From the IMG/VR virus record IMGVR_UViG_3300028394_000003, positions 1-63,708 of that record: a stretch of 63,708 nucleotides of DNA. The stretch is one strand, 5' to 3'. Positions 13,415-57,373 of the stretch are shown here, piece after piece. The stretch is from a virus (taxonomy: Duplodnaviria > Caudoviricetes). Position 1 is the first letter of the stretch. Each line of letters begins with the position of its first letter. Below the pieces are notes generated by a model. That model was given only the letters and a program-made list of their open reading frames with translations, did not search any database and was not told where the DNA came from. A program made the translations under genes and the position numbers.

Positions 13415-13429
13415 ATTCTTCCTATACAT

Positions 13430-13459
13430 ATTAATGCAAATAAGTCAGCCATTCCGCCC
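13430..13459 (-). promoter_or_regulatory. Phage promoter motif GGGCG-N16-TGCATTAAT
   Basis: Exact motif and spacing. Confidence 0.8.
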
Positions 13460-20619: not shown

Positions 20620-22065
20620 CTATTGTGCATAAGGATTAGAAAATCGTTTGTTAGAGTCATCATCAGCGTAATCATAGTCTCTTGCTGGCAATGGATCAAG
20701 CTGCAGCCAGCCCGAATCCCTGAGTACCCTTAAGGCTTGGGACAGGGAGTCTACGTAGTCATCATGGCCCCCGGCTTCAGGAAACGAGCACACCTGACGC
20801 AGGAAGCGTTTTGCCCATGAGGCGTAGTCGCTCTTTTGTTCGGTGTCTTCTGGTATGAATACCTTGCCCTTGGATACAAGGGGTGCCACAATGTTAAGCC
20901 GTTGTACCTTGTCTGCTCTTCCAGGGTTGTACCCACGGACAGGAACGCCGGCCCGCTGTAGTTCTTGGATTAAAGATATGCCAGCTGACTTGTCTTCCAT
21001 TAAGATTTGGTCTGCCTTACGGCCCTTACCAAACTCGTTATCTGACCCGTAGACTACTTCCTTAAAATCACTGATAACCTTACGACGCAGCTCGGGATAT
21101 GACAGGTGTTCATCCCATGCGTCTAAAAGAATAACGGATGTGCCAGCGTCTTCTCGTTCAAATATTCCCCACACCGTGCAGGCTGTCGGGTCGTTCATTG
21201 TCTTTTCGCTAGTAGCTGGGTCATAACTGGCGATCACGTACTCAAGAACGGGTGTCGGCTTGTTAGCGGGCCACATCTTAAACTGCTTACGCTTGATGAT
21301 ACCAGTGGCCTCTGGGTCAAGGATCTCGCCGTAGATCTCTTGGCGGCCCATGTCGGTGCCATCATAAGTCTCGAGCTGCTTAAAAAACGTTTCTGATAAG
21401 TTGGCTCGGTTGTCATACGAGCTGGCGTTAACCATGTACACGTCACCACCAATCTTACCCTCAGCTAAGTCTACAATTAATTCTTTTGGCTTTGGTGTGG
21501 TGGTAATAATCTGCTGCACTCGAGAGATCCTGGGATCCTTGAGTCGGAGCGTAAACTGTACTCCGTCGTAGGCTTCATCGAGGTAATCAAACGCACACAG
21601 CTCGTCGAACCAAGCGCCATGGTATTGCTTACCACGATACCGTTCAGGTTCAGAGGCGGGAATGCCTTGAATGATAGAGCCGTTGGTAAGGGTGATCTCG
21701 AATAGAGACTTGTTGTAGTCGCGGATGAGTGACTTGGGGATGATATTGATAAGCCCTGAGTCTCCCTCAAAACAAGTTGCGCGTATATCGTTGGAAGTCG
21801 GGGCTGTGACCAGCCATCTTGTATTGTCATAAAGCCAAGCGCGGATACCAATCCAATGACTGGCAGTGTGCGTCTTACCTGATCCACGACCAGCAAGCAT
21901 AAGGAACGTGTCATACTCATTGTCGTCTGGTTCTTTCTGGTGGGGTAGTGCCTGTAGCGACCACCTGACCTGCCACATAAGGGCCTCGAGCTGCTGGTTA
22001 GGCCAATGCTTACGTGCATCTGCAAACTTCTTTAGTGTAAGTTCTTGTTTAGGTGTTAAAGACAT
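20620..22065 (-). CDS. terL: Terminase large subunit
   Basis: Walker A AGRGSGKT, Walker B AWFDE, TTTP motif, C-terminal nuclease HDDYVDS. Confidence 0.93.
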   Translation of the reverse strand: MSLTPKQELTLKKFADARKHWPNQQLEALMWQVRWSLQALPHQKEPDDNEYDTFLMLAGRGSGKTHTASHWIGIRAWLYDNTRWLVTAPTSNDIRATCFEGDSGLINIIPKSLIRDYNKSLFEITLTNGSIIQGIPASEPERYRGKQYHGAWFDELCAFDYLDEAYDGVQFTLRLKDPRISRVQQIITTTPKPKELIVDLAEGKIGGDVYMVNASSYDNRANLSETFFKQLETYDGTDMGRQEIYGEILDPEATGIIKRKQFKMWPANKPTPVLEYVIASYDPATSEKTMNDPTACTVWGIFEREDAGTSVILLDAWDEHLSYPELRRKVISDFKEVVYGSDNEFGKGRKADQILMEDKSAGISLIQELQRAGVPVRGYNPGRADKVQRLNIVAPLVSKGKVFIPEDTEQKSDYASWAKRFLRQVCSFPEAGGHDDYVDSLSQALRVLRDSGWLQLDPLPARDYDYADDDSNKRFSNPYAQ

Positions 22066-23048
22066 GATATGAAGCCTTCTCCTACGAGAATCGTGTTGTC
22101 TTCCCCAGTGGTTTCTATATAAACACAGGACTGGGGTTGAATGGGGTCTATGCTGCAGACATACCGTCTACTCTGATGCACCTTTATCGGCGGCGAGTTC
22201 TGGTTCTCTATCAGCTTGATGCGTGATTTAAAAAATAACGTGTAATGCTTAAACGTGTTCTCAAAATTTTGTGAGGTTTTTATGCCGAGTGACTCAACTA
22301 AGAACTGAATCTGAGAAATTAAATTTAACTGCTTAGAAGAAAACTGAAAACTGTCTTTCTTTTGTGAGTATACCCTACTCTTAGTACAAAAAATTCCCCT
22401 AAGCAGTTCAATTCGCTGCTCAGGTGAGCCAAGTAGGTAGTTGTTTGATATTTTTGTGGGGATGTTAGGCACAAGCTGTGACTCAATACTTGGACTAACG
22501 CTAAAATCTCTGGATCCTGTCTTTTGTTTCCTGCCAAATTTTGTTTTGTAGCCAAAGTCTTTGAACTGTTGCTCAACATAGTCCTGCATCCCACGCGCCG
22601 CCGACAGTTTGCCGTTGGTTTTTCTGGCAAAGAACCAGAACCCCATGATGAATGGCGGGATTGGTAGTACTTGGTGGGGTAGTTCCAGGGGTTGGGTAGT
22701 CGGAACGGAGTAGACGAGGCGGTTTCTTTTGCTTTTAAGCGGCAAAGAAAGTAGATCTTGGATATTAGTAGGCTTAAGTGGTCTCCTAAACGCCCTAGTG
22801 CCCTTGTATGAGTTAAGCCTGTTGCGATACTTTTGGTTTTCCAATGGAAGTTTAAGCGCACCATCGCCTTGGATGGTAAGCCAATCGCTAAAAGTAATCT
22901 TGTAGCACTCAGTTGCCTGATATTTTTGAACTAATTTGACACGAACAATCTTGCCGTTCCTATCGAATACATAGTCACCCTCAACCAAACTCCCAGCACG
23001 CTTCCAGTAATCAAGCGTTAGTACTTTTTCTGTTGCTAATATCGCCAT
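22056..23048 (-). CDS. Free-standing intein-like protein (Hint plus LAGLIDADG-like domain), degenerate
   Basis: MAILATEKVLT..W....L.EGDYVFD.NG (block A), CYKITFSD (B), YLLGSPEQRIELLRGI (EN), C-terminal blocks F/G lacking the terminal HN. Confidence 0.75.
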   Translation of the reverse strand: MAILATEKVLTLDYWKRAGSLVEGDYVFDRNGKIVRVKLVQKYQATECYKITFSDWLTIQGDGALKLPLENQKYRNRLNSYKGTRAFRRPLKPTNIQDLLSLPLKSKRNRLVYSVPTTQPLELPHQVLPIPPFIMGFWFFARKTNGKLSAARGMQDYVEQQFKDFGYKTKFGRKQKTGSRDFSVSPSIESQLVPNIPTKISNNYLLGSPEQRIELLRGIFCTKSRVYSQKKDSFQFSSKQLNLISQIQFLVESLGIKTSQNFENTFKHYTLFFKSRIKLIENQNSPPIKVHQSRRYVCSIDPIQPQSCVYIETTGEDNTILVGEGFISCL

Positions 23049-23319
23049 AAAAATTATTTAAGACCCATCGGTCCAGCCAACGCCCTAGCGGCGCCCTTAT
23101 GTTTGATTGTATTGAATACGGCAGCTTTTGTATTTCCAAAGCATCCGAAGACACCTTTAAACGAAACTGGATGTATTTAGCTGTTTCGTTGTTTAAAATA
23201 TCTGCCGGTACGTTTACCACCTCAAAGTTGTTAAGGTCACACACTAATACTTGGAATCCCTTGAACTCACCAACGGGACTTTCCAACGCACCTTTGATTT
23301 GGTAGACATAGTCATTCAT
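23011..23319 (-). CDS. Hypothetical protein, probably leaderless
   Basis: ATG at 23319 lies 6 nt after TGCATTAAT; start revised from the ORF track. Confidence 0.65.
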   Translation of the reverse strand: MNDYVYQIKGALESPVGEFKGFQVLVCDLNNFEVVNVPADILNNETAKYIQFRLKVSSDALEIQKLPYSIQSNIRAPLGRWLDRWVLNNFYGDISNRKSTNA

Positions 23320-23325
23320 ACTTAC

Positions 23326-23355
23326 ATTAATGCAAACAATCGTTGTTTTCCTTCC
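23326..23355 (-). promoter_or_regulatory. Variant phage promoter GGAAG-N16-TGCATTAAT heading the packaging operon
   Basis: Exact downstream element; variant upstream pentamer at the same spacing. Confidence 0.65.
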
Positions 23356-23374
23356 AATAATATAAATAAATGCC

Positions 23375-23535
23375 AAAGTGCAAGGGTTGCAAGGCTTAAT
23401 CAGTCCCTCCAGTACTTAATAATATTTTTTTAATTTTTTTTTTAAAAGAATAAAAAGGGGTTACAACCCTAGCAACCCAAGGACCTAGTTTGCAAGTGCT
23501 TGATTATATTGAATCTAGATGATAATGATTCTCAA
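23375..23535. repeat. Origin-like element copy 1 (inverted GGGTTGC repeats around an A/T core, IHF site, Fur-like box)
   Basis: Diverged direct repeat of 29238-29399. Confidence 0.7.
23520..23534. promoter_or_regulatory. Fur-like box
   Basis: TGATAAT-G-ATTCTCA, one mismatch to 7-1-7 TGATAAT-N-ATTATCA. Confidence 0.6.
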
Positions 23536-23919
23536 GTAATTTTATAAAAAAATTTTACAATATGAAATTATGTGATATTTGTAAAAAAATATAAAAACTC
23601 AGGCTTTGTGGGGCCCCCCGCCCCCTCCTCCCCGATGGGACCCTAAACGGGTGTATGGCTTTATAAAAAGACCCCTTGCCATTATGCCTCCTAGCGTATG
23701 TGAGTGCTCACTTACAGGCCGAGCTGGCGGATCGACCAGTATGCTGCACTGCACCACCCCCAGTGAGCGCTCACTTACATGCAGGCACACCAGGCGGCTT
23801 GGCACTCAGGCACATCGACTGCTGATAATGGGGACAGAGTGGAGAGCGGGCCAGTGTGTTGCGCTGCAGTAATGGGGACAGAGTCGACGTGCTGCACTGC
23901 GTCATTGCCAGTTAGGCAG

Positions 23920-23936
23920 TGCACCATGTTGGTGCA
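23920..23936. promoter_or_regulatory. NtrC-like binding site
   Basis: TGCACCA-TGT-TGGTGCA, a perfect 7-3-7 palindrome. Confidence 0.6.
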
Positions 23937-24118
23937 TCGGCATAGGGGCGCGTAGACGGGCCGCCATGACGCGATCGCCAGTTAGGCTACTAACGTATTA
24001 CCGCGCCGAGATCTCTAGCAATCCAGTAAACAGGAGGGTTGCGGGGAGAGGTTACGCGCAGGCGAGGCGATATGGGGCGGAGTACTTCCTAGTCAGTATC
24101 TACCAGGACGGCTGCCCT

Positions 24119-24153
24119 CCCACAATCCCCCACCGCGCCCCACTAATCACCAC
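24119..24153 (-). promoter_or_regulatory. MraZ-like direct repeats
   Basis: GTGGT-N5-GTGGG-N5-GTGGG-N5-GTGGG at a 10-bp period. Confidence 0.5.
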
Positions 24154-24220
24154 CAAACCCAGTAGCCAATTGGGCCCAAAAGATTGTCAGATTAGAGGGT
24201 AGTTTTTTTGTCGAAAGTTC

Positions 24221-24249: not shown

Positions 24250-24372
24250 CTCTATATGGGATGTGCAGTGGCTAATCCACTCAGTAGTAGAAGGACTCAA
24301 ACCCAACCGAGATAAATAAGGGGGAGCCGGCAGAACCGGTGCTGTTATCCAACACAGCGTATGACGGACACA

Positions 24373-24541
24373 GTAGCGCAGTAGGCTACTGGATCACCAA
24401 GTAGGCAAGCAGGAAACGGGGTAAGCCCCGAAACGGGTGTCACGGTAGTATGCGAGTCAGCATCCAAACAAGCAAACCGAATAGTCTTGGCCAAGTGTGT
24501 GGACTAGCATATCCACTTGATCCAGTAGCCTACTGCGCTAC
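24373..24541 (+). ncRNA. Structured RNA closed by a perfect 24-bp inverted repeat
   Basis: 24373-24396 is the exact reverse complement of 24518-24541; internal hairpins; no credible ORF. Confidence 0.65.
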
Positions 24542-24616
24542 AAGATAGTAATGCTCATAGCTACTTGTTACCAGGTAGCTAGAGGCAGTACTAACCAACC
24601 ACCAAGGAGATACACC

Positions 24617-28021: not shown

Positions 28022-28591
28022 GTGGCTGACAATGACATAAAGACGGACTACCTGCAGTCACTTTTTGGCATTGAGCCACTAACCATGAAAGAAGAGCACG
28101 CACTCGGTGCTCGCATAGCCAAGGGTGACAGCCTTGCGCTAGATAAACTTGTAACCCACAACTTACGCTTTGTGCCACACGTGGTCTGTAAGACTACGTA
28201 CTGGCAGCACGGCAAGATGCCGCTGGAGGACCTGCTCGCCATTGGTAATGAGCAGCTGCTCATCGCGGCCAAGCGCTGGAAGCCTATGAAGCATATTAGG
28301 TTCTCGGCGTTTGCCAGGTCATTCATACTGCGTGGACTACAGCGCGAGCTGGACAACACGGCAAACATCATCAGATTACCCATCAACATCATGGAAGAAC
28401 TAAAGCGCATGAATTATAACGAGCGCATGCTACTACAGGAACTGGGGCGTAAGCCACTGGTATCTGAGATAGCAAAGACGATGGACGTAAGAGAGTCAAG
28501 GATTCACCAGCTCAAAGGTTTTATAGCCAGAGAGCCAGTGAGTTTAGACAACATTGAGAATGACAAGTTTTTTGAGGAAAATGATGATTAA
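28022..28591 (+). CDS. Sigma70-family factor with regions 1.2-3 only (no region 4)
   Basis: LTMKEEHALG (1.2), LVTHNLRFV (2.1), EDLLAIGNEQL (2.2), RFSAFA (2.3), IIRLP, LLQELGRKP..EIA, PVSLD (3.2), then stop. Confidence 0.85.
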   Translation: MADNDIKTDYLQSLFGIEPLTMKEEHALGARIAKGDSLALDKLVTHNLRFVPHVVCKTTYWQHGKMPLEDLLAIGNEQLLIAAKRWKPMKHIRFSAFARSFILRGLQRELDNTANIIRLPINIMEELKRMNYNERMLLQELGRKPLVSEIAKTMDVRESRIHQLKGFIAREPVSLDNIENDKFFEENDD

Positions 28592-28931
28592 TTTGACAGA
28601 TAAGCAACTCCGGGCTTATCAGCGGTATATCAAGGCGCGTAACCGTGTTGGTCTTGTGCGTACCAAAGACTTTAACGCTAACAGCTACGTGCCACACCGG
28701 GACTACACTAGTACGGTGGACATAGTAGGAATGAATCACCCGTTGTTCGAGTTAAACGAGGAGTGGGCCGAGTACAAGGAGGCATCACAGATGTGGTGGG
28801 ACATAGAGCCAGAGTTCCGTAAAAGAGAGCGCATGAGCTCGATTAGGGGCGACTATGGTATACCAGACAGCTGGGAAGAGATAAACTCCCGGGTGCCGGA
28901 CATATTTTCAGTTATAAAGGACGAAAAATAA
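28581..28931 (+). CDS. Hypothetical protein
   Basis: RBS gagg before ATG at 28581. Confidence 0.65.
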   Translation: MMINLTDKQLRAYQRYIKARNRVGLVRTKDFNANSYVPHRDYTSTVDIVGMNHPLFELNEEWAEYKEASQMWWDIEPEFRKRERMSSIRGDYGIPDSWEEINSRVPDIFSVIKDEK

Positions 28932-29237: not shown

Positions 29238-29399
29238 AAAGTGCAAGGGTTGCGAGGCTTATTTAGTCCATGTCACCCAATATAATATTTTTTTTAATTT
29301 TTTTTAAAAAAGAGTTAAAAGGGTCTACAACCCTAGCAACCCTAGCACTGGATTCATAAGCCATTGATTTTATTAGAAACAGATGAGAACCGTTATCAT
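29238..29399. repeat. Origin-like element copy 2, directly upstream of the primase-helicase gene
   Basis: Same layout as 23375-23535; IHF-like 29357-29369, Fur-like 29384-29398. Confidence 0.7.
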
Positions 29400-29441
29400 T
29401 CACCATAATTTGCATTAATATACCCAATTAGAGAGGGCAAA

Positions 29442-34758: not shown

Positions 34759-35851
34759 TGAAAAGCAGCGGCTTGAGGCCCTCGCTGTTGATGCAGACAT
34801 ATACATCATAAACCTTGAAAACGTAGCTTGGCTTTGTGACGTTCAGCCTAAGTTAGTGTTCACTAACTTAGTAATAGATGAGAGCAGCCGGTTTAAGGAC
34901 CCCAGCACTAAGCGTTTTAAGGCGCTTAAAAAGCATTTAAAGGGCTTCTCACGGCGTTTAATCCTAACCGGCACACCCACCCCTCAGGGCATGGCTGATC
35001 TCTGGTCACAGGTGGGTATACTGGACTTAGGGGCGCGTTTAGAGACTAGTCTCACCAAGTTTAGGGATAAGTATATGCAGCCGGACCAGATGAACCGGCA
35101 CACAAGGGTAATATATTCATGGAAACTACAACCAAATGCAGACCAGATTATTAAAGACAAGATTGAAGATATATGCTTTAGTCTTAAAGCTGAAGATTAT
35201 TTGCAGCTACCTAGCTGTACGTCGCTTTATCACAAAATTGATTTAGACCCACAAGTAAAGAACAAATACAATGAGCTTAGAAAAGATATGGTCGTTGAGA
35301 TCGGTAAGGGGCAGATCACAGCTCCAACAGCAGCGACACTGGCGAACAAGTTACTGCAATTCACCTCGGGTGCAGTCTATGGCCAAGATGGAGAGCCGCA
35401 GGAAATACACCGTACTAAATTGGAATACCTTGAGTCGATCATGGAAGAATCTTCAAGCCCGACATTGGTTTTCTACCATTTCAAACACAGCCTCAACAGG
35501 ATATGCCTCCAGTTCCCGCAGAGTGTGGTGCTGGACGATGACAACATTGCAGCGTGGAATCGTGGCGAGATTCGTATGTTGCTTGCCCATCCGCAGAGTG
35601 GTGGTATCGGGATTAATTTACAGTGCAACGCTGGAGAGACAGCCCAAACGGTTTGGTTCGATTTACCATGGAGCTCAGAGAACTACATCCAAGCGAATGC
35701 CCGGGTCTACCGTCAAGGGCAAGAAGTGCCGGTTATATTACACCACCTAGTAGTGGCTAACAGCATAGACGAACAAGTTGTCAAAGTGTTAGAAGGAAAA
35801 ATAAATTTGCAGGAGGCCTTGTTAAATGCGCTAGATTTTGCATTAATATAG
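34508..35851 (+). CDS. SNF2-like superfamily II helicase
   Basis: PGLGKT, VIDESS, LTGTP, QANARVYRQGQ. Confidence 0.9.
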   Translation: MIKRTQLHQYQQDLIKKAKTTPNLGLFLPPGLGKTATTLTIIAEQFEGKTLIIAPKRVAQTVWDAEINKWQHLSNLTCSKILGSEKQRLEALAVDADIYIINLENVAWLCDVQPKLVFTNLVIDESSRFKDPSTKRFKALKKHLKGFSRRLILTGTPTPQGMADLWSQVGILDLGARLETSLTKFRDKYMQPDQMNRHTRVIYSWKLQPNADQIIKDKIEDICFSLKAEDYLQLPSCTSLYHKIDLDPQVKNKYNELRKDMVVEIGKGQITAPTAATLANKLLQFTSGAVYGQDGEPQEIHRTKLEYLESIMEESSSPTLVFYHFKHSLNRICLQFPQSVVLDDDNIAAWNRGEIRMLLAHPQSGGIGINLQCNAGETAQTVWFDLPWSSENYIQANARVYRQGQEVPVILHHLVVANSIDEQVVKVLEGKINLQEALLNALDFALI

Positions 35852-38686: not shown

Positions 38687-38712
38687 AGGGGTCCGAAAGG
38701 GCCCCTTTTTTT
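38687..38712 (+). terminator. Intrinsic terminator
   Basis: ggggtcc-gaaa-gggcccc-ttttttt. Confidence 0.8.
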
Positions 38713-38760
38713 GCATTATTATATATACGATTAAACAGATTAACAGATTAAAAGGCAAAA

Positions 38761-40310: not shown

Positions 40311-40377
40311 TTATTTAAGGGTAGACGAACAGGCCCCTACTGAAGTCCTGTTCTACAGTTAAAAAGGTAATATCATC

Positions 40378-40905
40378 ATGGCAGCTAAATCAGTAAGAAC
40401 CAAACTAGTAACAAACAAAGTTCGTTTGTCTTTCGTTAACGTATTTGAACCAGCCGAGACATTAAACGGCGTACTTAAATATTCGACAATGGTATTAATT
40501 CCAAAGTCTGATAAAGAAGGTGTTGCCCGTTTTAATAAGGCATTTGAAGATACTAAGCAAGCCAATGCAGCATTCTTTGGTGGCTCAGTACCTAAGCTAT
40601 TAAAAGGTGGCTTACGTGATGGTGATGCAGAAAAAGAAGATCCAGAATTCGTGGGCCATTATTTCTTTAATGCTTACGCAAATATTGATCGTAAACCTGG
40701 CGTTGTAGACGCTGAAGTAAACCCAATCCTTGATAAGAATGAAGTGTACAGTGGTTGTTATGGTCGCGTGTCAATTGACTTGTTTCCGTATGACACAGCA
40801 GGCGCCCGTGGTATTGCTGTTGGCTTAAACAACGTTCAGAAGTTAGAAGACGGAGAACGTTTAGGTGGAGCTAGTACATCAGCAGCAACAGATTTTGCAG
40901 CATAA
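40378..40905 (+). CDS. Single-stranded DNA-binding protein (DUF2815 / gp2.5-like)
   Basis: VRLSF..VFEP, KYS..LIPK, LRDGD, YSGCYGR, GLNNVQK..DGE.L. Confidence 0.88.
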   Translation: MAAKSVRTKLVTNKVRLSFVNVFEPAETLNGVLKYSTMVLIPKSDKEGVARFNKAFEDTKQANAAFFGGSVPKLLKGGLRDGDAEKEDPEFVGHYFFNAYANIDRKPGVVDAEVNPILDKNEVYSGCYGRVSIDLFPYDTAGARGIAVGLNNVQKLEDGERLGGASTSAATDFAA

Positions 40906-49769: not shown

Positions 49770-50654
49770 TTAATCGTTTCCGTAGTAATACTGACTTGAA
49801 CCATCTTCGCTAGGTGCCGTTACCTCTTCGTACGGAGAGGCTGGGCTTGGCATGTCGCTGTTAGTTGGTATTCTGTTAAACAAGTCCATTAATTTAGGAC
49901 CAACTTGTGTTAAATTACCAAGTCCTAAACTATTTAATACACTAGTGCCTAGTCCAGCTACTGCACCAATTTGACTAAACGGAGACATTTGATTTTGCTG
50001 TGCTACGAGACCTGGAACACTAACGTCATTAACTAAGTTTGCGTAACTTCCAAGGTTCTGGAATGGAGCGTTCATTTGAGTATTACCAGCTGTCATTTCG
50101 GTGCCCAGTTGTTGGTTAAGTACGTTACCCAATCCAGTGCCCGCCTGTACGCCAGTGGTTTGATTCTGTAGCGCAGACTGCATTTGCTGAGCCGATAAGT
50201 TAGCGAATGCGTCAGCTTTAGCTTTATTAAGCGCAGTTTCTCCGCGCAAACTGCCAAATTGACCAGACGCAATATTAGCACCTTGAACCGGGGCTGTATA
50301 ATTTGGCATCAATTGGTTTAGCTGTTGGTTTTGTGCTTGAAACAATCCGCCCATTGCCGTGTTGGTATTTGGGGTTACTTGGCCGTTGGCTCCAGTAATC
50401 CAAGGATTAGCCGCACCCTGAGCAATTTGACCTAACGCGCCTTGGGCTTGGTTAAATGAATTATTAGGGTTTTGCAAAGTATTAATAGCCTGCTGACCCA
50501 CCGTATTTTGAAAAGTTGGCGCATCGGCAAGTGCCTGATGTGCTCCACTTACAATACCTTTTTGCGCGTCAGTATACCACGCTGGTAATGTAGTTTCTTT
50601 TACGTATGTATCGGTTAAAAAGTTATTTAAACCAGTTGATCCTGTTGTTGCCAT
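49770..50654 (-). CDS. DNA transfer/pilot-like internal virion protein
   Basis: Q/N/A/G-rich; GQFGSLR; C-terminal amphipathic GAVAGLG. Confidence 0.65.
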   Translation of the reverse strand: MATTGSTGLNNFLTDTYVKETTLPAWYTDAQKGIVSGAHQALADAPTFQNTVGQQAINTLQNPNNSFNQAQGALGQIAQGAANPWITGANGQVTPNTNTAMGGLFQAQNQQLNQLMPNYTAPVQGANIASGQFGSLRGETALNKAKADAFANLSAQQMQSALQNQTTGVQAGTGLGNVLNQQLGTEMTAGNTQMNAPFQNLGSYANLVNDVSVPGLVAQQNQMSPFSQIGAVAGLGTSVLNSLGLGNLTQVGPKLMDLFNRIPTNSDMPSPASPYEEVTAPSEDGSSQYYYGND

Positions 50655-53600
50655 TATGCTCTCACTTTACGTTTTGCTTCTAATAAGTAACCTAGCGCAC
50701 CCTTACTATCTGGTGGCAGTCCATTTTTATTTGCACGGGTCTTGTGCGATCTAATTGTCTTTAAAAATTCGTCAAGTATAGATGCACCGCTGTCATTACT
50801 TCCATTGCCTAAAGATGATACCACATCGGCAGGTATTACAAACTCGCCGTTTGCTAACATTGCTGGAATGCTATCACTAGTTCCGTCACCGTCACCTTGA
50901 ACGTAACGATTTTCCATGGCGTTTAAACCACCTTCACTAAAGAACTGTGGGTTGTGGTTTATAACTTCTCCGCCAGTACTTAGCGCTGGTGCGTTAGCCA
51001 TTGTATTTAATCCAACAAAAGGCTTATGAAATGAAAATTGCTTACCCTTCATTTTGGTTTCAGCAAAAGACGGATCAAACGCAGGATTTGTATCTTGAGC
51101 ACCACCAACTGCCATGTGAACAACACCACCCTGAGCAGCGGCTAAAATTTGCTTTAGTACTGCATCTGGATTATATATAGGCTGTGCGTATGTATACTGT
51201 TGCAAGTCATACTTCCCTGGTAAGGCAGGATCTGTGGCCTTACCTTTAATAAAATTAGAAACCGGAGAGTATGAAGCGTCACCTGGGCCGACACTCATAT
51301 TTGAACCTGAGCTGGCACCTGCAGTGTTTGAACTAGAAGGATTCCCACCAGTTGCTAACCGCATTAGGCCACCTTCTTTAGCGGCTTTTAGTTGCTGTTC
51401 TAAATCCATTGGTAAAAACGGAGGGCTTATATAATTTTCCATAGGTATCACATTACTTGGTTTAGTTGAATCAATAACACGCATTAATTTGTCTAAAGGC
51501 AGTGCGTGCTTTCTACCTTTTGTAAAGTCTGCTATTAAATCCGGGGGAACTCGTTTTTTAAACTTACCCTTATCCACTGGTTTCTTCTTTATCGGTGGAA
51601 CTAATGTTGGTACGTTTGTCTTTGGCCCTTTTGACGGTTTTGTCGGGTCTTCCGGTGTAACTATAACAGGTGGGCTTATTGGTTCTATACTCGGTGGAAC
51701 TAGTTCTAACGGCGGTTTAACTTTCGATGGCGGATTAATTGATGTAATAACCGACGTCGGTGTTAGCGGGTCCAACACAGCAATATCCACTGGCACAGGT
51801 GTTGGGCTTACTGGCTCTAATTGTGTTAAGGTTTGTGTCTGAGGCTGTATTTTAGTTAAATCTTTTAATGCAATATCCGTTTTCGTTGGATTTTCTGTTG
51901 CAAGTTGTGTTGCAGTCTGCGTTTGCGGCGCTGTTATAGTACTTGTCAATGACCGTGGATCGGTAATTGTTTTTAAATTTGCGTCTGTATCTGTTACGGT
52001 CTGTGTAACCGGTTTTCCGTAAATCAATTCTCCGCGAGTCTTTGTTGCTGTATCTGTATCCGTCTGCGTATCTGTCTGTGTATTAGTTTCTGGTGCTGTT
52101 AAATCCGTACCAAAAAGAGTATTTTTGTTAAATAGTCTGTTAATGTCTGGTTTTTCAGCAAATGGCAATCCCTCAGTTTTTTGTGTTTCTGTGCTTCTTT
52201 GCATTTGAGGCACTAAATCATCATCACCCAATTTAAGACCAACCAAGTCGTTTAACGTTTTTTTAATATCTTCTATTAAAACTTGGTTGTGCTGTATGTC
52301 GTTTTTATTGCTAGTGGGAGTTTCACCAGAAGATTTAACAGAAGTAATATTACTTCCAAAATGAACAAATGGATTACCCCTTGCTTCACTGTCTGAATTT
52401 AATATTTCTACAGGAACCATACCTACTTTTGGAGTTGTTTCGTATGACGCTGTTCCTAATTTAGTTCCCGCTTTTAATGGGCCATAATCTTTTGTTAATT
52501 CAACCGATGTTTTTCCAGTGGAATTTCCTTCTGAGTCTACTTCAAACGTAAATTTTACGCCCATATCTGGGTTTTGAAAATACCCCCCAACGTTATTAAC
52601 AGTCGTCGGATCCATGAAAACAGTTTTTGAAGACCTCGGCTGAGTTTCTTGCCCAGTACCCGGCATATTGGAAGGTTCTCTAAATCCTACTGTAGTTCCG
52701 TCTGAATACTGTGAGTATGTAGACCCACGTGATGTTTCAAACTGGTAAGTTGCACTACTTGAAGTTTCAATTACTGGGGTGTGTGTTGCCAAAGCTCCAA
52801 ACACGCCAGAAATAGTAATATCATTTCCAGCGGCGTCAGTTCCCAATACTTTATTAGGATCTAACTTTCCTGCTTCCGTAGTGATGTTGTTATTAATTTG
52901 AGTTACCAACTCAGATCCAATAGTTTTAATCGCCATTGAATTTGCCTGGTCTGCAGGAATACCAGTTTGTTGCAACGTCTGCGAAATTGTATCTATTGTA
53001 TTTTGAACATTAACCATCTGTTCAGCAGAAGGTGCTGGTAATAATCTCTGCGGCCCTTCTAATAACTTAGGCGCTTCCCAAGAAAACTGGCTTTCAGTTT
53101 TCGGTGGTGCTAACTTTAAAAATTGATTTGTGTCTACTTCAGCTTTTGAATTTGCAAAACTTGCAATAACAAGTTGGTTAACTGCTGAAACAGCGCTAAT
53201 TGGTGCATCCATGGCGGCATTAGTATTCATCTTATTAAGATTAAAACTAAAATTAGCCATTGAATCTTTTGGATCGCCAGCAACCACAGCAATATCGCGT
53301 ACTCCGGTATTTAGGAAAGAACGGGTCCAAGCCCCAACATACGCAGCTGTGGCAAGTCCTGCCATTCCTTTTGTAGTGAACTCTACAATATCTCCAGAAA
53401 GTTGACGCATGATAGCTGCATCAACATGGCCCATGGTTGCTAAAGTTATGAAACCCTGTGCTATGCCACTGGCTACTGCAGGCGCAACTGCGTCTTCGTG
53501 ACTCACCTTTTTAGCTCGTAAATCGTCGTAGGATATTCCCAAACCACCAAGCGTGGCATCTAAAGTATCAAGTGCCAACTCTGTACCGATTGCAATTCTT

Positions 53601-56600
53601 AATGCGTTAAAACTTCCAGCAATCTTAGCGAAAAACCCAGCGGCCCCAGCTATGCCCATAAACATTGTGTCTTGAAGAATTTCTGGGCCAGCTATTTTAA
53701 CAAACGCGGCGGGATACTGTAAGTACGCCTTAATTGCCATTAATTCTTTTGTGCCCGCTGGTGCGTCTTCCACCATTTTCCTAGCAAGTGCGTAACCATC
53801 GTCCATTGCTTTTATTACAGCTGGGGGCACATTTTTATTAGCAAAATCATTAACTGCTTTGCCTGCCAAATACATGTCATTTTCTCTGCCATATGGTGAA
53901 ATTAAAAGAGCAGAAAAATTTTGTATTTGTTGACCTATCATGGTAACCGCAGCCCATTGCATCACACCGGGTGCGTATTTAGCCACATCAACAAGCGCGT
54001 CCATTACCTCTTTTGCACCGGTTAAAATATTTGGTTGTCCCGGTTCCGCGTTAGGTGATATAAAACTTTCCATTGACTTTTGAACAGCGTCAAACGTTGG
54101 AACACGGCTTTTAATATCTTCTAAACTTGGTAACTCTATTGCTGAAATATTTTTAGCTAAATTGTTTGCAGATGATTCTACTGTATTAGAAAGCCTATCA
54201 ATAAATCGTTTTGTGCTGCCCTCAAACATTGGGGCTGTGTCCTTAGCAAAATCTATAGCCTCTTGTAACGTCCTAGTTTTTGGTGTTAAACCTTCGCTTA
54301 AAACTTGCATAGCCGACTTAGGCGGCGCTTCTGGTGTAGCAGCAGAAGGAGGCGGCGCTAAGGCAGTTGTGTACTGTTTTCCGTTCCATTCAAACGCTTT
54401 AGCACCAGATGCCCTAGCTTCTTTAAACGCATCACCAAAATTGTCCGCAGTAGATACAATTGTCTTATCTTTTGAAACAGAACCCGTTGATATATAATTA
54501 GTATAGGCGTCTGCTTTATCTTTAGGAATTTGGTATAAATCTTGCAAATTACGAGAAATATCAGTTTTTGATAATCCTTGAGCTTGCATTTCTTTTGTAA
54601 CGTATTCTAAATTCTTTTGGTTATCGCCAGTTAACAATTTTGCAGCATTTAAAACACCAATTGGGTCACTAGAATTATTTGCTAATTTTTCTATTACATT
54701 GTTAGCAACAGTATTTTGGTAATACCCTTCTGCTGTTTTTGTGTCTATATTATATATAGCTGCTAAATTAGATACAATATCTTGTCTTGGTATGTTTTGG
54801 TCAACCATTTCATTGGTAACAATCCGCATATTTGAAATTGGATCACCAGTCCAATTATTTTGTGCTGCAAACATACCCAATGGATCTTTAGATGCATTTA
54901 CGTATGGATCAACAAGACCGCGTTGTAACACCGTATCTACTGCACCGCTAGTAAGTCCAACATTTTCTGTAAAGTTAGTTGGGTTTAAGGCGGCACGCTC
55001 AGCAGCAACTTCTCTTGCAGTATCAATAAAAAATCCAGCCACTAAAGATGGCATGTTATTCATCACTGCAGTTTGTACGTTTTGACCTTTTAACAAAGCG
55101 CTTGTTGCTATTTGACCTGCGGCCTGTGCGGCTCTTATTGCTGCCTGTAACGCATCTGGGTTTATTTGCTTAACTATGTCCCCTGCGTATTGCCCAACGC
55201 TACTAGCAGCTAAATTAGTAAACAACTCTGTCATGAAATTTTCTGAGCTTATTTTTCCAGCTACTACTGAAGCAAAAGTCATTGAAATTGTTCTGCCAAT
55301 TACATCCTGTACATTTTTAGTGGCTTCTGCAAAACTAAATGCTCCCGGAGGTATTCCCATTGCATCTGTTATTGACTGTATAGTAGCCTCGCCAACAAGG
55401 TTGGTTGCTACTTGACCCACTCCAGCGCTTACTAATGAACCCATACCACCAGTTACCGCGCCTATGATAGCACCCTTAGCAGCTGCTTGTGCTATGTCTC
55501 CACCGGTGCCTGCAGCCATTATTGCACCTGTAGCCGCCATTGTCATTGCCGTCGTTGCAGCTGCTGCGGCGGCAGCTCCTGCGGCACTAGTTCCAAATGC
55601 CGTTGCAAGTGCGGGTCCAAATTCGGCGGACACAACCGGGCCCATTGCCCAGCCAACAGAGGCCATAACAATTGCAGACGTTATTTGGAAACCAATTTGG
55701 TTTAAACCAGTGAAACCACCTGGGTCTTGTGGTGTAATATCTTGAATTGTAATTGGTAATTTTGAATCTTTAGTAAACAGTAAGTTACCAGTTTCTTTAT
55801 CTACCAAGAATTCAGGCGTAACTATTGGAATTCTAACACCACCACCAAGATCAATTGAATCTTTTCCACCATACTCACCACCAGAGTACACCGTATTACG
55901 ATAACCCATTCGTTGGTTTGCAATACCAGCGGGGCTAGTATAAGAGGACATTGCGGGCATAGCAAATATTCCGCTATCACTAACAACAACTGTTTCACCA
56001 GTTGGGGTTACGTAGACCTTATAGTCTCCAGTAACTCCCATTTCACGGGCGCCTCTTGCAGCTAAATTAGTGTAATACTCGTTGCCCTTCATATCCGGTG
56101 TTACTGGTGTTGCACCTGCAGTTACCTTATCAATAGCAAGTTTATTCATTTCTACTTGTTTTTGATACGCTTCTGAATCTGGTCCGTTTACTGCTTTTTC
56201 TCTATCACTTGTTGGGTTTCCGTCAGCGTCTCTCCAAAGATAAATATGGTTAGTTGATGTTAACTGACCAGTTTCTGGATCATACTGTGCTGCAGTTGGA
56301 AGCTCAGAATACTTTATTAATTTACTTTGATATTCGTCACTATTTATAATACCGGCTTTAACCTCTTCAGGTGTCTTGTCTTTCCATGTATCTAATCCGG
56401 TTTGATCCGCTGGACGGTCTAAGTAATATTGGTAAAGTGCGTTCACATCTGTCGGATGTGGCATTGACTTATACTCATCACTGGCCATAATACCTGCCGC
56501 GACTTCCTCTGGTGTTTTACCAGCCCATGCAGCTATTTCTCCTTGGCTTGGGGTGCGGCCAAGATTGTTCCTATAAAGATAGCTTGTAACAACAGGCGCA

Positions 56601-57307
56601 AATTCTGCGCTTGTTATAATTGATTGTTTAATTTCATCAGGTGTTTTACCAGCAAAAGTAGCTAAAGCTCCTGCATCTGGATTACGACCTAAGTACTGGT
56701 TAAAAAGTGAAGTTGTGTTATATGTTGAATACTCTGGACTGGCTTTAAGCGCATTGGTAACATCTTGCGTTGACATATTAGCAAAAGTTTGTGCACCAGA
56801 TTGATCAACATTTCGACCTAAATATTTTAAATAAAGCGCATTTAAATCTGCAGTGTCACCTTGGCCAGGACCAGTTTGAACTGGTGTGGCTGCATTTTGT
56901 GATGGTGTAATATTAAAATTAGTGTCACCAGTTGGCGTTATGGGGTTTCTTGATGCATATTCACCACTGTTTAAAATACCCTGAAGCACTGTGTTGTAGT
57001 CTTGACCAGTCCAAGTAGAAGCACCAGATTGGTCAACTCCACGGCCTAAATACTGTTGGTATAGCTGATCTAATCCTGCTTGGTCAACACCACCACCTCT
57101 ATTTGTATCGTATACTTGAGGTGGACTAGTTAAGCTGTTGTCACCACCGCCACCGCCACCACCACCACCGCCTTGATCTGGAGCAGGGCCAGTTTGAATT
57201 GGCGCGGCATTATTAAATTCAGGAGGTGCAGCTTCAACCGTTACAGAGCTTTCCGCTGGCGCGTCGTCTACCCAAGTTGCACTGTCTCCGCTATCTACCC
57301 AACCCAT
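50654..57307 (-). CDS. Giant internal virion/ejection protein (2217 aa) with DUF4214-like repeats
   Basis: Five LY..YLGR..D..G repeats; hydrophobic Ala/Gly region; C-terminal GDGTSDSIPAMLANGEFVIPAD. Confidence 0.75.
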   Translation of the reverse strand: MGWVDSGDSATWVDDAPAESSVTVEAAPPEFNNAAPIQTGPAPDQGGGGGGGGGGDNSLTSPPQVYDTNRGGGVDQAGLDQLYQQYLGRGVDQSGASTWTGQDYNTVLQGILNSGEYASRNPITPTGDTNFNITPSQNAATPVQTGPGQGDTADLNALYLKYLGRNVDQSGAQTFANMSTQDVTNALKASPEYSTYNTTSLFNQYLGRNPDAGALATFAGKTPDEIKQSIITSAEFAPVVTSYLYRNNLGRTPSQGEIAAWAGKTPEEVAAGIMASDEYKSMPHPTDVNALYQYYLDRPADQTGLDTWKDKTPEEVKAGIINSDEYQSKLIKYSELPTAAQYDPETGQLTSTNHIYLWRDADGNPTSDREKAVNGPDSEAYQKQVEMNKLAIDKVTAGATPVTPDMKGNEYYTNLAARGAREMGVTGDYKVYVTPTGETVVVSDSGIFAMPAMSSYTSPAGIANQRMGYRNTVYSGGEYGGKDSIDLGGGVRIPIVTPEFLVDKETGNLLFTKDSKLPITIQDITPQDPGGFTGLNQIGFQITSAIVMASVGWAMGPVVSAEFGPALATAFGTSAAGAAAAAAATTAMTMAATGAIMAAGTGGDIAQAAAKGAIIGAVTGGMGSLVSAGVGQVATNLVGEATIQSITDAMGIPPGAFSFAEATKNVQDVIGRTISMTFASVVAGKISSENFMTELFTNLAASSVGQYAGDIVKQINPDALQAAIRAAQAAGQIATSALLKGQNVQTAVMNNMPSLVAGFFIDTAREVAAERAALNPTNFTENVGLTSGAVDTVLQRGLVDPYVNASKDPLGMFAAQNNWTGDPISNMRIVTNEMVDQNIPRQDIVSNLAAIYNIDTKTAEGYYQNTVANNVIEKLANNSSDPIGVLNAAKLLTGDNQKNLEYVTKEMQAQGLSKTDISRNLQDLYQIPKDKADAYTNYISTGSVSKDKTIVSTADNFGDAFKEARASGAKAFEWNGKQYTTALAPPPSAATPEAPPKSAMQVLSEGLTPKTRTLQEAIDFAKDTAPMFEGSTKRFIDRLSNTVESSANNLAKNISAIELPSLEDIKSRVPTFDAVQKSMESFISPNAEPGQPNILTGAKEVMDALVDVAKYAPGVMQWAAVTMIGQQIQNFSALLISPYGRENDMYLAGKAVNDFANKNVPPAVIKAMDDGYALARKMVEDAPAGTKELMAIKAYLQYPAAFVKIAGPEILQDTMFMGIAGAAGFFAKIAGSFNALRIAIGTELALDTLDATLGGLGISYDDLRAKKVSHEDAVAPAVASGIAQGFITLATMGHVDAAIMRQLSGDIVEFTTKGMAGLATAAYVGAWTRSFLNTGVRDIAVVAGDPKDSMANFSFNLNKMNTNAAMDAPISAVSAVNQLVIASFANSKAEVDTNQFLKLAPPKTESQFSWEAPKLLEGPQRLLPAPSAEQMVNVQNTIDTISQTLQQTGIPADQANSMAIKTIGSELVTQINNNITTEAGKLDPNKVLGTDAAGNDITISGVFGALATHTPVIETSSSATYQFETSRGSTYSQYSDGTTVGFREPSNMPGTGQETQPRSSKTVFMDPTTVNNVGGYFQNPDMGVKFTFEVDSEGNSTGKTSVELTKDYGPLKAGTKLGTASYETTPKVGMVPVEILNSDSEARGNPFVHFGSNITSVKSSGETPTSNKNDIQHNQVLIEDIKKTLNDLVGLKLGDDDLVPQMQRSTETQKTEGLPFAEKPDINRLFNKNTLFGTDLTAPETNTQTDTQTDTDTATKTRGELIYGKPVTQTVTDTDANLKTITDPRSLTSTITAPQTQTATQLATENPTKTDIALKDLTKIQPQTQTLTQLEPVSPTPVPVDIAVLDPLTPTSVITSINPPSKVKPPLELVPPSIEPISPPVIVTPEDPTKPSKGPKTNVPTLVPPIKKKPVDKGKFKKRVPPDLIADFTKGRKHALPLDKLMRVIDSTKPSNVIPMENYISPPFLPMDLEQQLKAAKEGGLMRLATGGNPSSSNTAGASSGSNMSVGPGDASYSPVSNFIKGKATDPALPGKYDLQQYTYAQPIYNPDAVLKQILAAAQGGVVHMAVGGAQDTNPAFDPSFAETKMKGKQFSFHKPFVGLNTMANAPALSTGGEVINHNPQFFSEGGLNAMENRYVQGDGDGTSDSIPAMLANGEFVIPADVVSSLGNGSNDSGASILDEFLKTIRSHKTRANKNGLPPDSKGALGYLLEAKRKVRA

Positions 57308-57343
57308 TTATTAACCTTTTTAATGCACAATTGTTATACCTAT

Positions 57344-57373
57344 AATAATGCAAAAATAGGGCTCTATTCGCCC
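57344..57373 (-). promoter_or_regulatory. Phage promoter motif GGGCG-N16-TGCATTATT
   Basis: Exact motif and spacing. Confidence 0.8.

Follow-up and report, generated by a model that had tools for sequence, protein, structure and literature searches.

A conserved NtrC-consensus box and an origin-like iteron module in the putative control region of an uncultured freshwater phage

Sites for host regulators are known in phages, among them NtcA and Pho boxes in cyanophages and LexA and Fur boxes in prophages. In marine cyanophages, promoters carrying NtcA boxes have been interpreted as a use of the host nitrogen-stress response (Sullivan et al., 2010; PMC3037559). Here we describe a non-coding tract at positions 23493-24153 of the complete IMG/VR virus record IMGVR_UViG_3300028394_000003 (63,708 bases, referred to below as the window), which contains an exact consensus box for the host nitrogen regulator NtrC and is joined at its left edge to a duplicated, origin-like module built around short repeats (iterons). 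The closest precedent is the NtcA boxes of marine cyanophages: there, too, lytic phages carry consensus sites for a global nitrogen regulator of the host, and both sets of sites were recognized by computational matching. The two cases differ in the regulator, since NtcA belongs to the CRP-type activators and works at sigma-70 promoters, whereas NtrC is a bacterial enhancer-binding protein (bEBP) that works with sigma-54. They also differ in layout. The cyanophage sites are scattered, with 1-16 per genome before many genes, whereas the boxes in the present phages are confined to one tract next to the origin-like module, where an IHF-consensus match, a palindrome of the Fur type and phased GTGGG pentamers share a fixed grammar with them.

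The other parts of the tract have counterparts of their own. As at enterobacterial enhancers of the glnAp2 type, the NtrC box shares its intergenic region with an IHF consensus, and in some relatives of this phage two boxes 40-41 bp apart face the same side of the helix, with textbook -24/-12 elements nearby. In contrast to glnAp2, a single exact box is present in this genome and a strong -24/-12 element is lacking, the nearest box in the relatives is 10 to ~30 nt from the -24 element rather than ~100 nt, the sigma-54 elements often stand face to face, and the target would be a phage control region. The MraZ operator consists of three GTGGG-type repeats with a 10-bp period; the phage array shares the pentamer, the period and the three to four copies in one orientation, but its spacers are ATT-rich or G+C-rich where those of mraZ are A-rich, and it lies upstream of the early leader rather than between a promoter and mraZ. 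With the iteron origins of R6K gamma and pSC101 the locus shares repeats flanking an A+T stretch together with an IHF site. In satellite phage P4, two related copies several kb apart (ori and crr) are read by the alpha primase-helicase; the present phage likewise has two copies kb apart and encodes a D5/P4-alpha-like primase-helicase beside one of them. Unlike in the iteron plasmids and P4, the iteron blocks are inverted around the A+T tract, and the IHF site is accompanied, with constant spacing, by a Fur-box-like palindrome. The initial annotation of this DNA held that no described system has this combination of sites, which overlooks the precedents described for each part. Searches of open-access text for NtrC, sigma-54 or bEBP sites in phages listed no paper on NtrC boxes or sigma-54 enhancers in the control region of a virulent phage.

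The NtrC-consensus box and the G+C-rich tract

By gene content, the window is a 63.6-kb freshwater phage of the virulent tailed type. The tract lies in a gap of ~1.3 kb free of open reading frames (ORFs), from 23320 to about 24550-24613, between leftward packaging genes and rightward early genes. Minus-strand genes end at 23319, where the ATG of the first of them, encoding the 102-residue protein gpL, is located, and plus-strand genes begin at 24551 or 24614. This agrees with the initial placement of the tract at a point of transcriptional divergence and with the absence of credible genes from it, although the gene-free stretch in fact exceeds 23493-24153 and starts at 23320. Two ORFs within the tract (88 and 78 aa) are not credible genes, because the protein sequences are less conserved in the closest relative (56% and 74% identity) than the DNA (84%). 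G+C content is 0.267 over 23320-23600 and 0.587 in the G+C-rich island that follows, compared to 0.448 for the genome. GC skew flips sign at the tract; the skew also tracks the direction of transcription. The tract had further been placed, as probable, near a genome end, for which no support was found: it is ~23 kb from the record ends, which carry an exact 127-bp repeat resembling an assembly overlap.

A related large terminase subunit (TerL) is encoded on 345 IMG/VR stretches, and the best 80 of these 345 were fetched. The start of gpL was located in 67 loci. Those with at least 1200 nt upstream of gpL (42 loci) and this genome gave 43 regions, which were reduced to 33 non-redundant tracts. 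Motif persistence was scored over 1300 nt per tract in 32 non-redundant relatives (41.6 kb in all), with the remainder of those loci (385 kb) as background. All 43 regions have ~300 nt at 25-45% G+C followed by ~500-600 nt at 45-65%, and no conserved ORF was found among them. BLAST showed that the relatives are mosaic, with short conserved blocks within diverged spacer. The initial annotation had proposed asking whether relatives keep the motifs as the sequence between them drifts apart; for most of the motifs they do. The motifs it listed are all present in this genome where it had placed them, with one correction of 1 nt (23742 instead of 23741).

The 17-bp palindrome at 23920 is identical to the published NtrC consensus, TGCACCA-N3-TGGTGCA (PMC8743547 and also PMC4987338); the match to NtrC, already reported in the initial annotation, is letter for letter against PMC8743547. 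Exact copies of TGCACC-N5-GGTGCA occur 101 times within 1300 nt upstream of gpL (67 loci, 70,210 nt), compared to 0 in the remaining 687,213 nt. Among the 32 relatives, 27 have the box, with 58 sites against 0 in the background. The 33 tracts together contain 66 sites: 53 match exactly, 11 differ at one position and 2 differ at two. None of the 13 variant boxes is compensatory, 16 different centre triplets are found, and the flanks follow the pattern R...Y. This signature is the one expected if a protein reads two half-sites in duplex DNA, and not the one expected of an RNA stem. In 9 of the 33 tracts, boxes are paired 40-41 bp apart. This genome has only one exact box and a decayed one at ~23747, of which the left half alone remains, so that the multi-box arrangement is absent here; at the aligned position in the closest relative (L008) there is a perfect box. 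We also considered an N4-type hairpin promoter for a virion RNA polymerase (7-bp stem, 3-nt loop). This candidate was dropped, as the loop is unconstrained (16 triplets) and the 2217-aa protein of the phage matches no polymerase family.

The tract is unusually repetitive. In 1000 first-order Markov simulations of 23493-24153, none reached the eight repeated 11-mers found (0.06 expected) or the longest direct repeat of 15 nt (8.4 expected), and 21 reached the five close palindromes (1.1 expected). Several of the repeats are shared with the relatives: GTGAG..CTCAC is found in 14/32 (18 sites, 2 in the background) and GGGGACAGAGT in 16/32 (18 sites, 2 in the background). The TGYTGCRCTGC-type words, which overlap NtrC half-sites, are present in 13/32 relatives with 18 sites compared to 9 in the background. 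They had been likened to PhaR sites; in the literature the PhaR motif is given only as "repeated TGC" or a "TGC-rich region" (PMC10888616), which is too vague for such an assignment, and the likeness amounts to the repeated TGC. The 11-mer TAATGGGGACAGAGT is repeated directly at 23826 and 23870. The repeat GCCAGTTAGGC is poorly conserved (3/32 relatives, 3 sites and 2 in the background). Where a tract holds the conserved 12-mer, the NtrC boxes and the phased array, they follow one another in that order in 13 of 14 cases, a regularity that the initial annotation had not noticed. Four relatives with few or no full NtrC-type boxes (L024, L051, L055 and L068) have two to six direct repeats of GCGGTGCAAC at tract positions ~490-770, each containing one NtrC-type half-site.

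The phased array at the right end of the tract was described in the initial annotation as four GTGG(G/T) pentamers with a 10-bp period; its coordinates and period hold, and it lies on the minus strand. Two phased pentamers are found in 17/32 relatives (30 sites versus 2 in the background) and three in 10/32 (13 versus 0). In all 18 tracts holding the array, its orientation is constant and its tract position is 770-940. A metagenome-assembled genome (MAG) of a candidate host lineage has GTGGG-N5-GTGTG-N5-GTGGG upstream of mraZ, the form of which matches the phage array. This agrees with the likeness to MraZ sites proposed at the outset.

Elements resembling sigma-54 promoters were scored by a -24/-12 pattern in which GG and GC were obligatory and seven further positions were counted. 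Perfect (7/7) elements occur ten times in 5 of the 33 tracts, whereas none is present in the rest of this genome (62 kb beyond the gap). In the relatives, single-copy perfect elements face gpL, and an NtrC box precedes their -24 element by 10 nt; for perfect elements on the plus strand, the box is ~28 nt upstream. Face-to-face elements lie at 440-472 and 528-560 in L010, at 462-494 and 550-582 in L078 and at 549-581 in L080 (tract coordinates, window orientation), with 1 nt between the 16-nt elements and 3 nt between the TTGC cores. In L078, L080 and L076, an element matching the sigma-54 consensus lies directly against the NtrC box; its equivalent in this genome, at 23890-23917, has decayed and carries a 2-nt insertion. 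The best candidate here, at 23808-23823, has GG (23809-10) and GC (23821-22) at sigma-54 spacing and scores 5/7 by our own count, below the 6/7 threshold. This candidate lies in a block of an inverted repeat followed by TAATGGGGACAGAGT, which is 93-96% identical in otherwise diverged relatives and has the opposite orientation in eight non-redundant relatives. The block (23798-23842) is reversed relative to gpL in L026, L028, L031, L041, L043, L044 and L047, with L041 and L044 at 80-87% identity. Another group of relatives has only the 11-mer, ~60 nt upstream of gpL.

The iteron module and its second copy

At the left edge of the tract, the IHF match and the Fur-like box belong to a duplicated iteron, origin-like module, a point that the initial annotation had missed. 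The sequence at 23375-23525 recurs, 77% identical, at 29238-29389, so that the entire early-gene cluster lies between the two copies. Each has iteron blocks on both sides of an A+T-rich core. The iteron words vary among phages, and the same words are visible by eye in both copies; the commonest words were derived from both copies pooled. Relatives have repeats with a 9-bp period at the same place, with phage-specific sequences, and in L008 both iteron arms have changed together. Since the iterons are phage-specific and variable among relatives, a phage-encoded protein that reads them must exist. The module upstream of the primase, including the A+T-rich core, is present in 13 of the 13 phages that could be read there.

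The IHF-like site at 23493 had been noted before. The 13-nt IHF consensus is kept in both module copies, while the four free N4 bases differ; the genome as a whole has five matches, including that in the second copy at 29357. In 15 of the 33 tracts, the IHF match is found at tract position 174-275 with its orientation unchanged. The palindrome at 23520 agrees with the 7-1-7 Fur motif at 13 of 14 defined positions, with 1 mismatch. A palindrome of this kind lies 26-27 nt past the IHF site in 8/33 tracts at up to two mismatches and in 11/33 at up to three, and L059 has a near-complete longer Fur-type box.

The primase-helicase varies most at its C-terminus, where mean pairwise identity among 13 phages is 0.44-0.65, compared to 0.92 in the core. 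In two pairs of phages that have similar primase N-termini and differing iterons, the primase diverges at the C-terminus. By analogy with the iteron plasmids and P4, the module is probably a replication origin, in which host IHF would bend the DNA and a phage protein would read the iterons. The duplicated iteron-IHF module provides a candidate origin in an uncultured phage family. The features of the region are collected in Table 1.

Table 1. Sequence features in and around the tract (positions in the window; dot, no strand)
Feature	Position	Strand	Remarks
12-nt promoter-like motif TTTGCATTAATG	23325-23336	-	6 nt upstream of gpL ATG
Left iterons, two overlapping TTGCAAGG-type units	23378-23397	+	
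A+T-rich core, candidate DNA-unwinding element	23414-23456		~45 bp; kept in second copy
Right iterons	23457-23484	-	inverted relative to left iterons
IHF-consensus match	23493-23505	-	left edge of tract
Fur-box-like 7-1-7 palindrome TGATAATGATTCTCA	23520-23534		15-mer
A+T-rich promoter-like stretch	23540-23600	.	end running into next element kept in relatives
12-mer TGTGGGGCCCCC	23607-23618	+	opens G+C-rich part; 21/32 relatives, 21 sites versus 0 in background
Palindrome GTGAGTGCTCAC + TTACA, copy 1	23700-23716		GTGAGYGCTCAC + TTACA
TGYTGCRCTGC, copy 1	23742-23758		overlaps decayed NtrC-type box, left half intact
Palindrome GTGAGCGCTCAC + TTACA, copy 2	23763-23779		GTGAGYGCTCAC + TTACA
Inverted repeat, then TAATGGGGACAGAGT	23801-23840	+	7-nt arms, 9-nt spacer with GGCAC
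TGYTGCRCTGC, copy 2, with second TAATGGGGACAGAGT	23857-23884	+	
TGYTGCRCTGC, copy 3, with GCCAGTTAGGC copy 1	23890-23917	+	
Exact NtrC-consensus box TGCACCATGTTGGTGCA	23920-23936		17-bp palindrome, TGCACCA-N3-TGGTGCA
GCCAGTTAGGC, copy 2	23977-23987	+	other copy at 23907
Four GTGG(G/T) pentamers, 10-bp period	24119/24129/24139/24149, to 24153	-	CCCAC/ACCAC on plus strand
Short early-leader hairpin block	24262-24283	+	outside tract 23493-24153
Long early-leader hairpin	24373-24541	+	perfect 24-bp outer stem; outside tract 23493-24153
Second module copy	29238-29400	+	ends 42 nt before primase-helicase ATG (29442); IHF match at 29357
12-nt motif copies upstream of genes	13429-13440(-), 23325-23336(-), 29409-29420(+), 35837-35848(+), 38710-38721(+), 57343-57354(-)		

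Readers of the sites and competing explanations

Among the proteins of the phage, there is no member of the Sigma54_activat (the AAA+ domain of NtrC), HTH_8, HU/IHF, MraZ or Fur families. The first early gene beside the tract has a homologue in only 5 of the 80 loci. An invariant box next to early genes that vary from relative to relative favours a reader that is itself conserved, for which a host factor would qualify. Metagenomic binning has put three related contigs into a MAG that is labelled as an uncultured betaproteobacterium and has a similar G+C content. This MAG encodes two bEBPs, one of them downstream of glnA, and has a one-mismatch box ~85 nt upstream of glnA. (An exact NtrC-type box in the MAG locus L098 lies inside a bEBP coding sequence and was not counted.) A Bfd-domain search of the MAG, aimed at the form of the Fur box in the candidate host, found such domains only within reading frames of 821 and 974 aa, which we tentatively take to be of the nitrite/nitrate-reductase type, and so did not bear on that form.

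From the sequence comparisons, we lean towards the view that the tract acts in cis as a hub in a single divergent control region, one that would recruit host NtrC and IHF and is joined to an origin-like module. The region would have two parts: the iteron module at 23378-23534, and a G+C-rich, enhancer-like array at 23600-24160 with a fixed order, in which the 12-mer is followed by the palindromes and NtrC boxes and then by the phased GTGGG pentamers beside the early leader. Host NtrC would bind the box or boxes and thereby couple phage transcription to the nitrogen state of the host. It might do so by activating sigma-54 promoters inside the tract, which are textbook in some relatives and weak here, or by acting as a roadblock to sigma-70 transcription crossing the tract. 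The idea of host regulators is partly supported: NtrC has the strongest case and IHF a moderate one, with Fur and MraZ behind them. The wider proposal, that a control region and possible origin is wired to NtrC and sigma-54, IHF, a Fur-type repressor and perhaps MraZ, and so reads nitrogen, iron and growth state at the start of infection, at replication or at the early-to-late switch, is a tentative one, about which we are doubtful. Nothing was found in favour of the suggestions that the tract titrates regulators, shields the DNA or pulls it in.

Several observations weigh against the recruitment of host NtrC and its partners. Five of the 32 relatives lack an NtrC box, and in this genome the box is not significant by itself (1 match at up to two mismatches, with 3.07 expected); since the single genome is not above chance, the weight of the box comes from the relatives. 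There is no sigma-54 element scoring at least 6/7 in the gap of this genome, and in the tracts elements scoring 6/7 are only ~2-fold denser than in the background (0.40 versus 0.19 per kb). The candidate at 23808-23823 also supplies spacer and arm to a conserved inverted repeat, and L036 shifts its GG by 2 nt, which breaks the sigma-54 spacing while the repeat arms are kept. The perfect elements in the relatives are often face to face, an odd arrangement for promoters, and the box is nearer to the -24 element than in classical NtrC enhancers. A promoter scan of the gap found four minus-strand sigma-70-like sites at 23540-23600 and none on the plus strand. The Fur-like box named in the initial annotation is present and keeps its fixed distance to the IHF site, but the family consensus deviates from the Fur motif, having G for T once per half-site. 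The phased pentamer is short and carries little information. The link between the iterons and the primase C-terminus is a hint from a comparison of only 13 phages. Finally, metagenomic binning and similar G+C content are weak evidence for a betaproteobacterial host lineage.

The main rival is that regulators encoded by the phage use the palindromes and repeats as their operators, the likeness of these elements to NtrC, Fur, IHF and MraZ sites being coincidence or mimicry. For the iterons, this surely holds: they are phage-specific and variable, so that there is at least one phage-encoded reader. Most of the early proteins and gpL have no family assignment, and gpL, for which the predicted model (pLDDT 86) has no fold match in the PDB, could be an unrecognized DNA binder; the departure of the Fur-like consensus from the Fur motif also fits. 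As an account of the whole tract, however, we consider it unlikely, given that the NtrC-type box is invariant (53 exact) next to early genes that are not conserved and equals the published 14-position consensus, that the phage has no homologue in the HTH_8, Fur, MraZ or HU/IHF families, and that the textbook sigma-54 elements beside the boxes in five tracts are sensible only with the host machinery.

Transcription of the G+C-rich tract into a structured non-coding RNA or long leader, with the palindromes as RNA hairpins, is quite improbable. The island is G+C-rich (0.587 versus 0.448) with many close palindromes, it is preceded by a conserved A+T-rich promoter-like stretch, and the adjoining element at 24373-24541 is a genuine covarying hairpin. 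Yet the tract gave no thermodynamic signal (folding z-scores: plus strand, +0.68; minus strand, -1.17), and a search of Rfam 15 gave no match in the gap at the gathering threshold, the best by E-value being to microRNA models at no more than 21 bits. A scan of the gap for tRNAs found none. The pattern of change points the same way, with none of the 13 variant boxes compensatory and the 7-nt arms of the inverted repeat varying only by breaking pairs; several palindromes are loopless, and conserved modules are found in either orientation. A packaging recognition region (pac or cos) for the terminase encoded just to the left, with IHF as a bending cofactor, would suit the position of the tract directly upstream of gpL, the 330-aa endonuclease-like protein, TerL and the portal, and lambda cosB has an IHF site next to the gene for the small terminase. 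But the module with the IHF site is duplicated upstream of the primase in 13/13 phages, which is a better fit to replication, and gpL has neither the family nor the fold of a small terminase subunit, making this explanation more improbable still.

If host NtrC does bind the box, a widespread group of lake phages, represented by the 345 related terminase stretches in IMG/VR, would sense nitrogen limitation, which is a key state in freshwater. The route would be a bEBP enhancer, and our searches of open-access text listed no description of such a mechanism in lytic phages. The defined grammar could also be used to find similar hubs in other uncultured phages.

Neighbouring elements and gene content

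The 12-nt motif upstream of gpL belongs to a set of promoter-like sequences. Its consensus, TTTGCATTARTA, has nine matches genome-wide at up to one mismatch, compared to 1.34 expected, and six of the nine stand directly before genes, in the matching orientation. The motif may serve as promoter for the phage's own sigma-like factor. The sigma-70-like factor (28022-28591) has Pfam matches to regions 1.2, 2 and 3, and no match to region 4. An ORF at 28554-28931, which has no family match, overlaps the end of this gene by 38 nt.

To the right of the tract, the early leader contains conserved hairpins. The block at 24255-24283 forms an imperfect hairpin that matches at 93% in the nine relatives' loci listed. 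The longer hairpin at 24373-24541 has 48 predicted pairs, 16 of them with compensatory changes among five sequences, and by this covariation is a genuine RNA (or cruciform) structure. A further conserved block at 24544-24600, an imperfect hairpin, extends across the opening 16 codons of the ORF predicted from 24551; because of this overlap, the true start of the early gene may be the ATG at 24614.

The plus strand encodes a DNA polymerase, a helicase, an exonuclease, a gp2.5-like single-stranded DNA-binding protein (SSB), a ribonucleotide reductase, the D5/P4-alpha-like primase-helicase and the sigma-70-like factor, and the minus strand encodes the portal, TerL and structural proteins. Most early proteins, like gpL, have no family assignment. 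The leftward packaging block beside the tract consists of gpL, a 330-aa endonuclease-like protein, TerL and the portal protein. Searches with gpL gave no Pfam or PHROG match and no small-terminase family, and its predicted model had no Foldseek match in the PDB at E <= 0.001.

Neither the tract nor the surrounding 13 kb had a DNA match by BLAST among 50,697 phage records, and the closest TerL proteins of cultured phages are at most 52% identical. In the nearest record, MW202545.1, no comparable tract was found in the 13.5 kb around its terminase. The sequencing runs that contain this sequence are freshwater or lake metagenomes, with no RNA run among the 24 listed.

The 330-aa protein, encoded at 22056-23048 on the minus strand between gpL and TerL, is kept in 78 of the 80 fetched loci. 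It matches only the inserted part of long, intein-bearing PHROG models for TerL and helicase loaders, and looks like a derivative of an intein or homing endonuclease. The 2217-aa protein (50654-57307, minus strand) has a DUF4214 match only and no PHROG family. A DUF2815 RNA motif (Rfam RF03084, 76.9 bits) is located at 40318-40380 on the plus strand, directly upstream of the gene for the gp2.5-like SSB.

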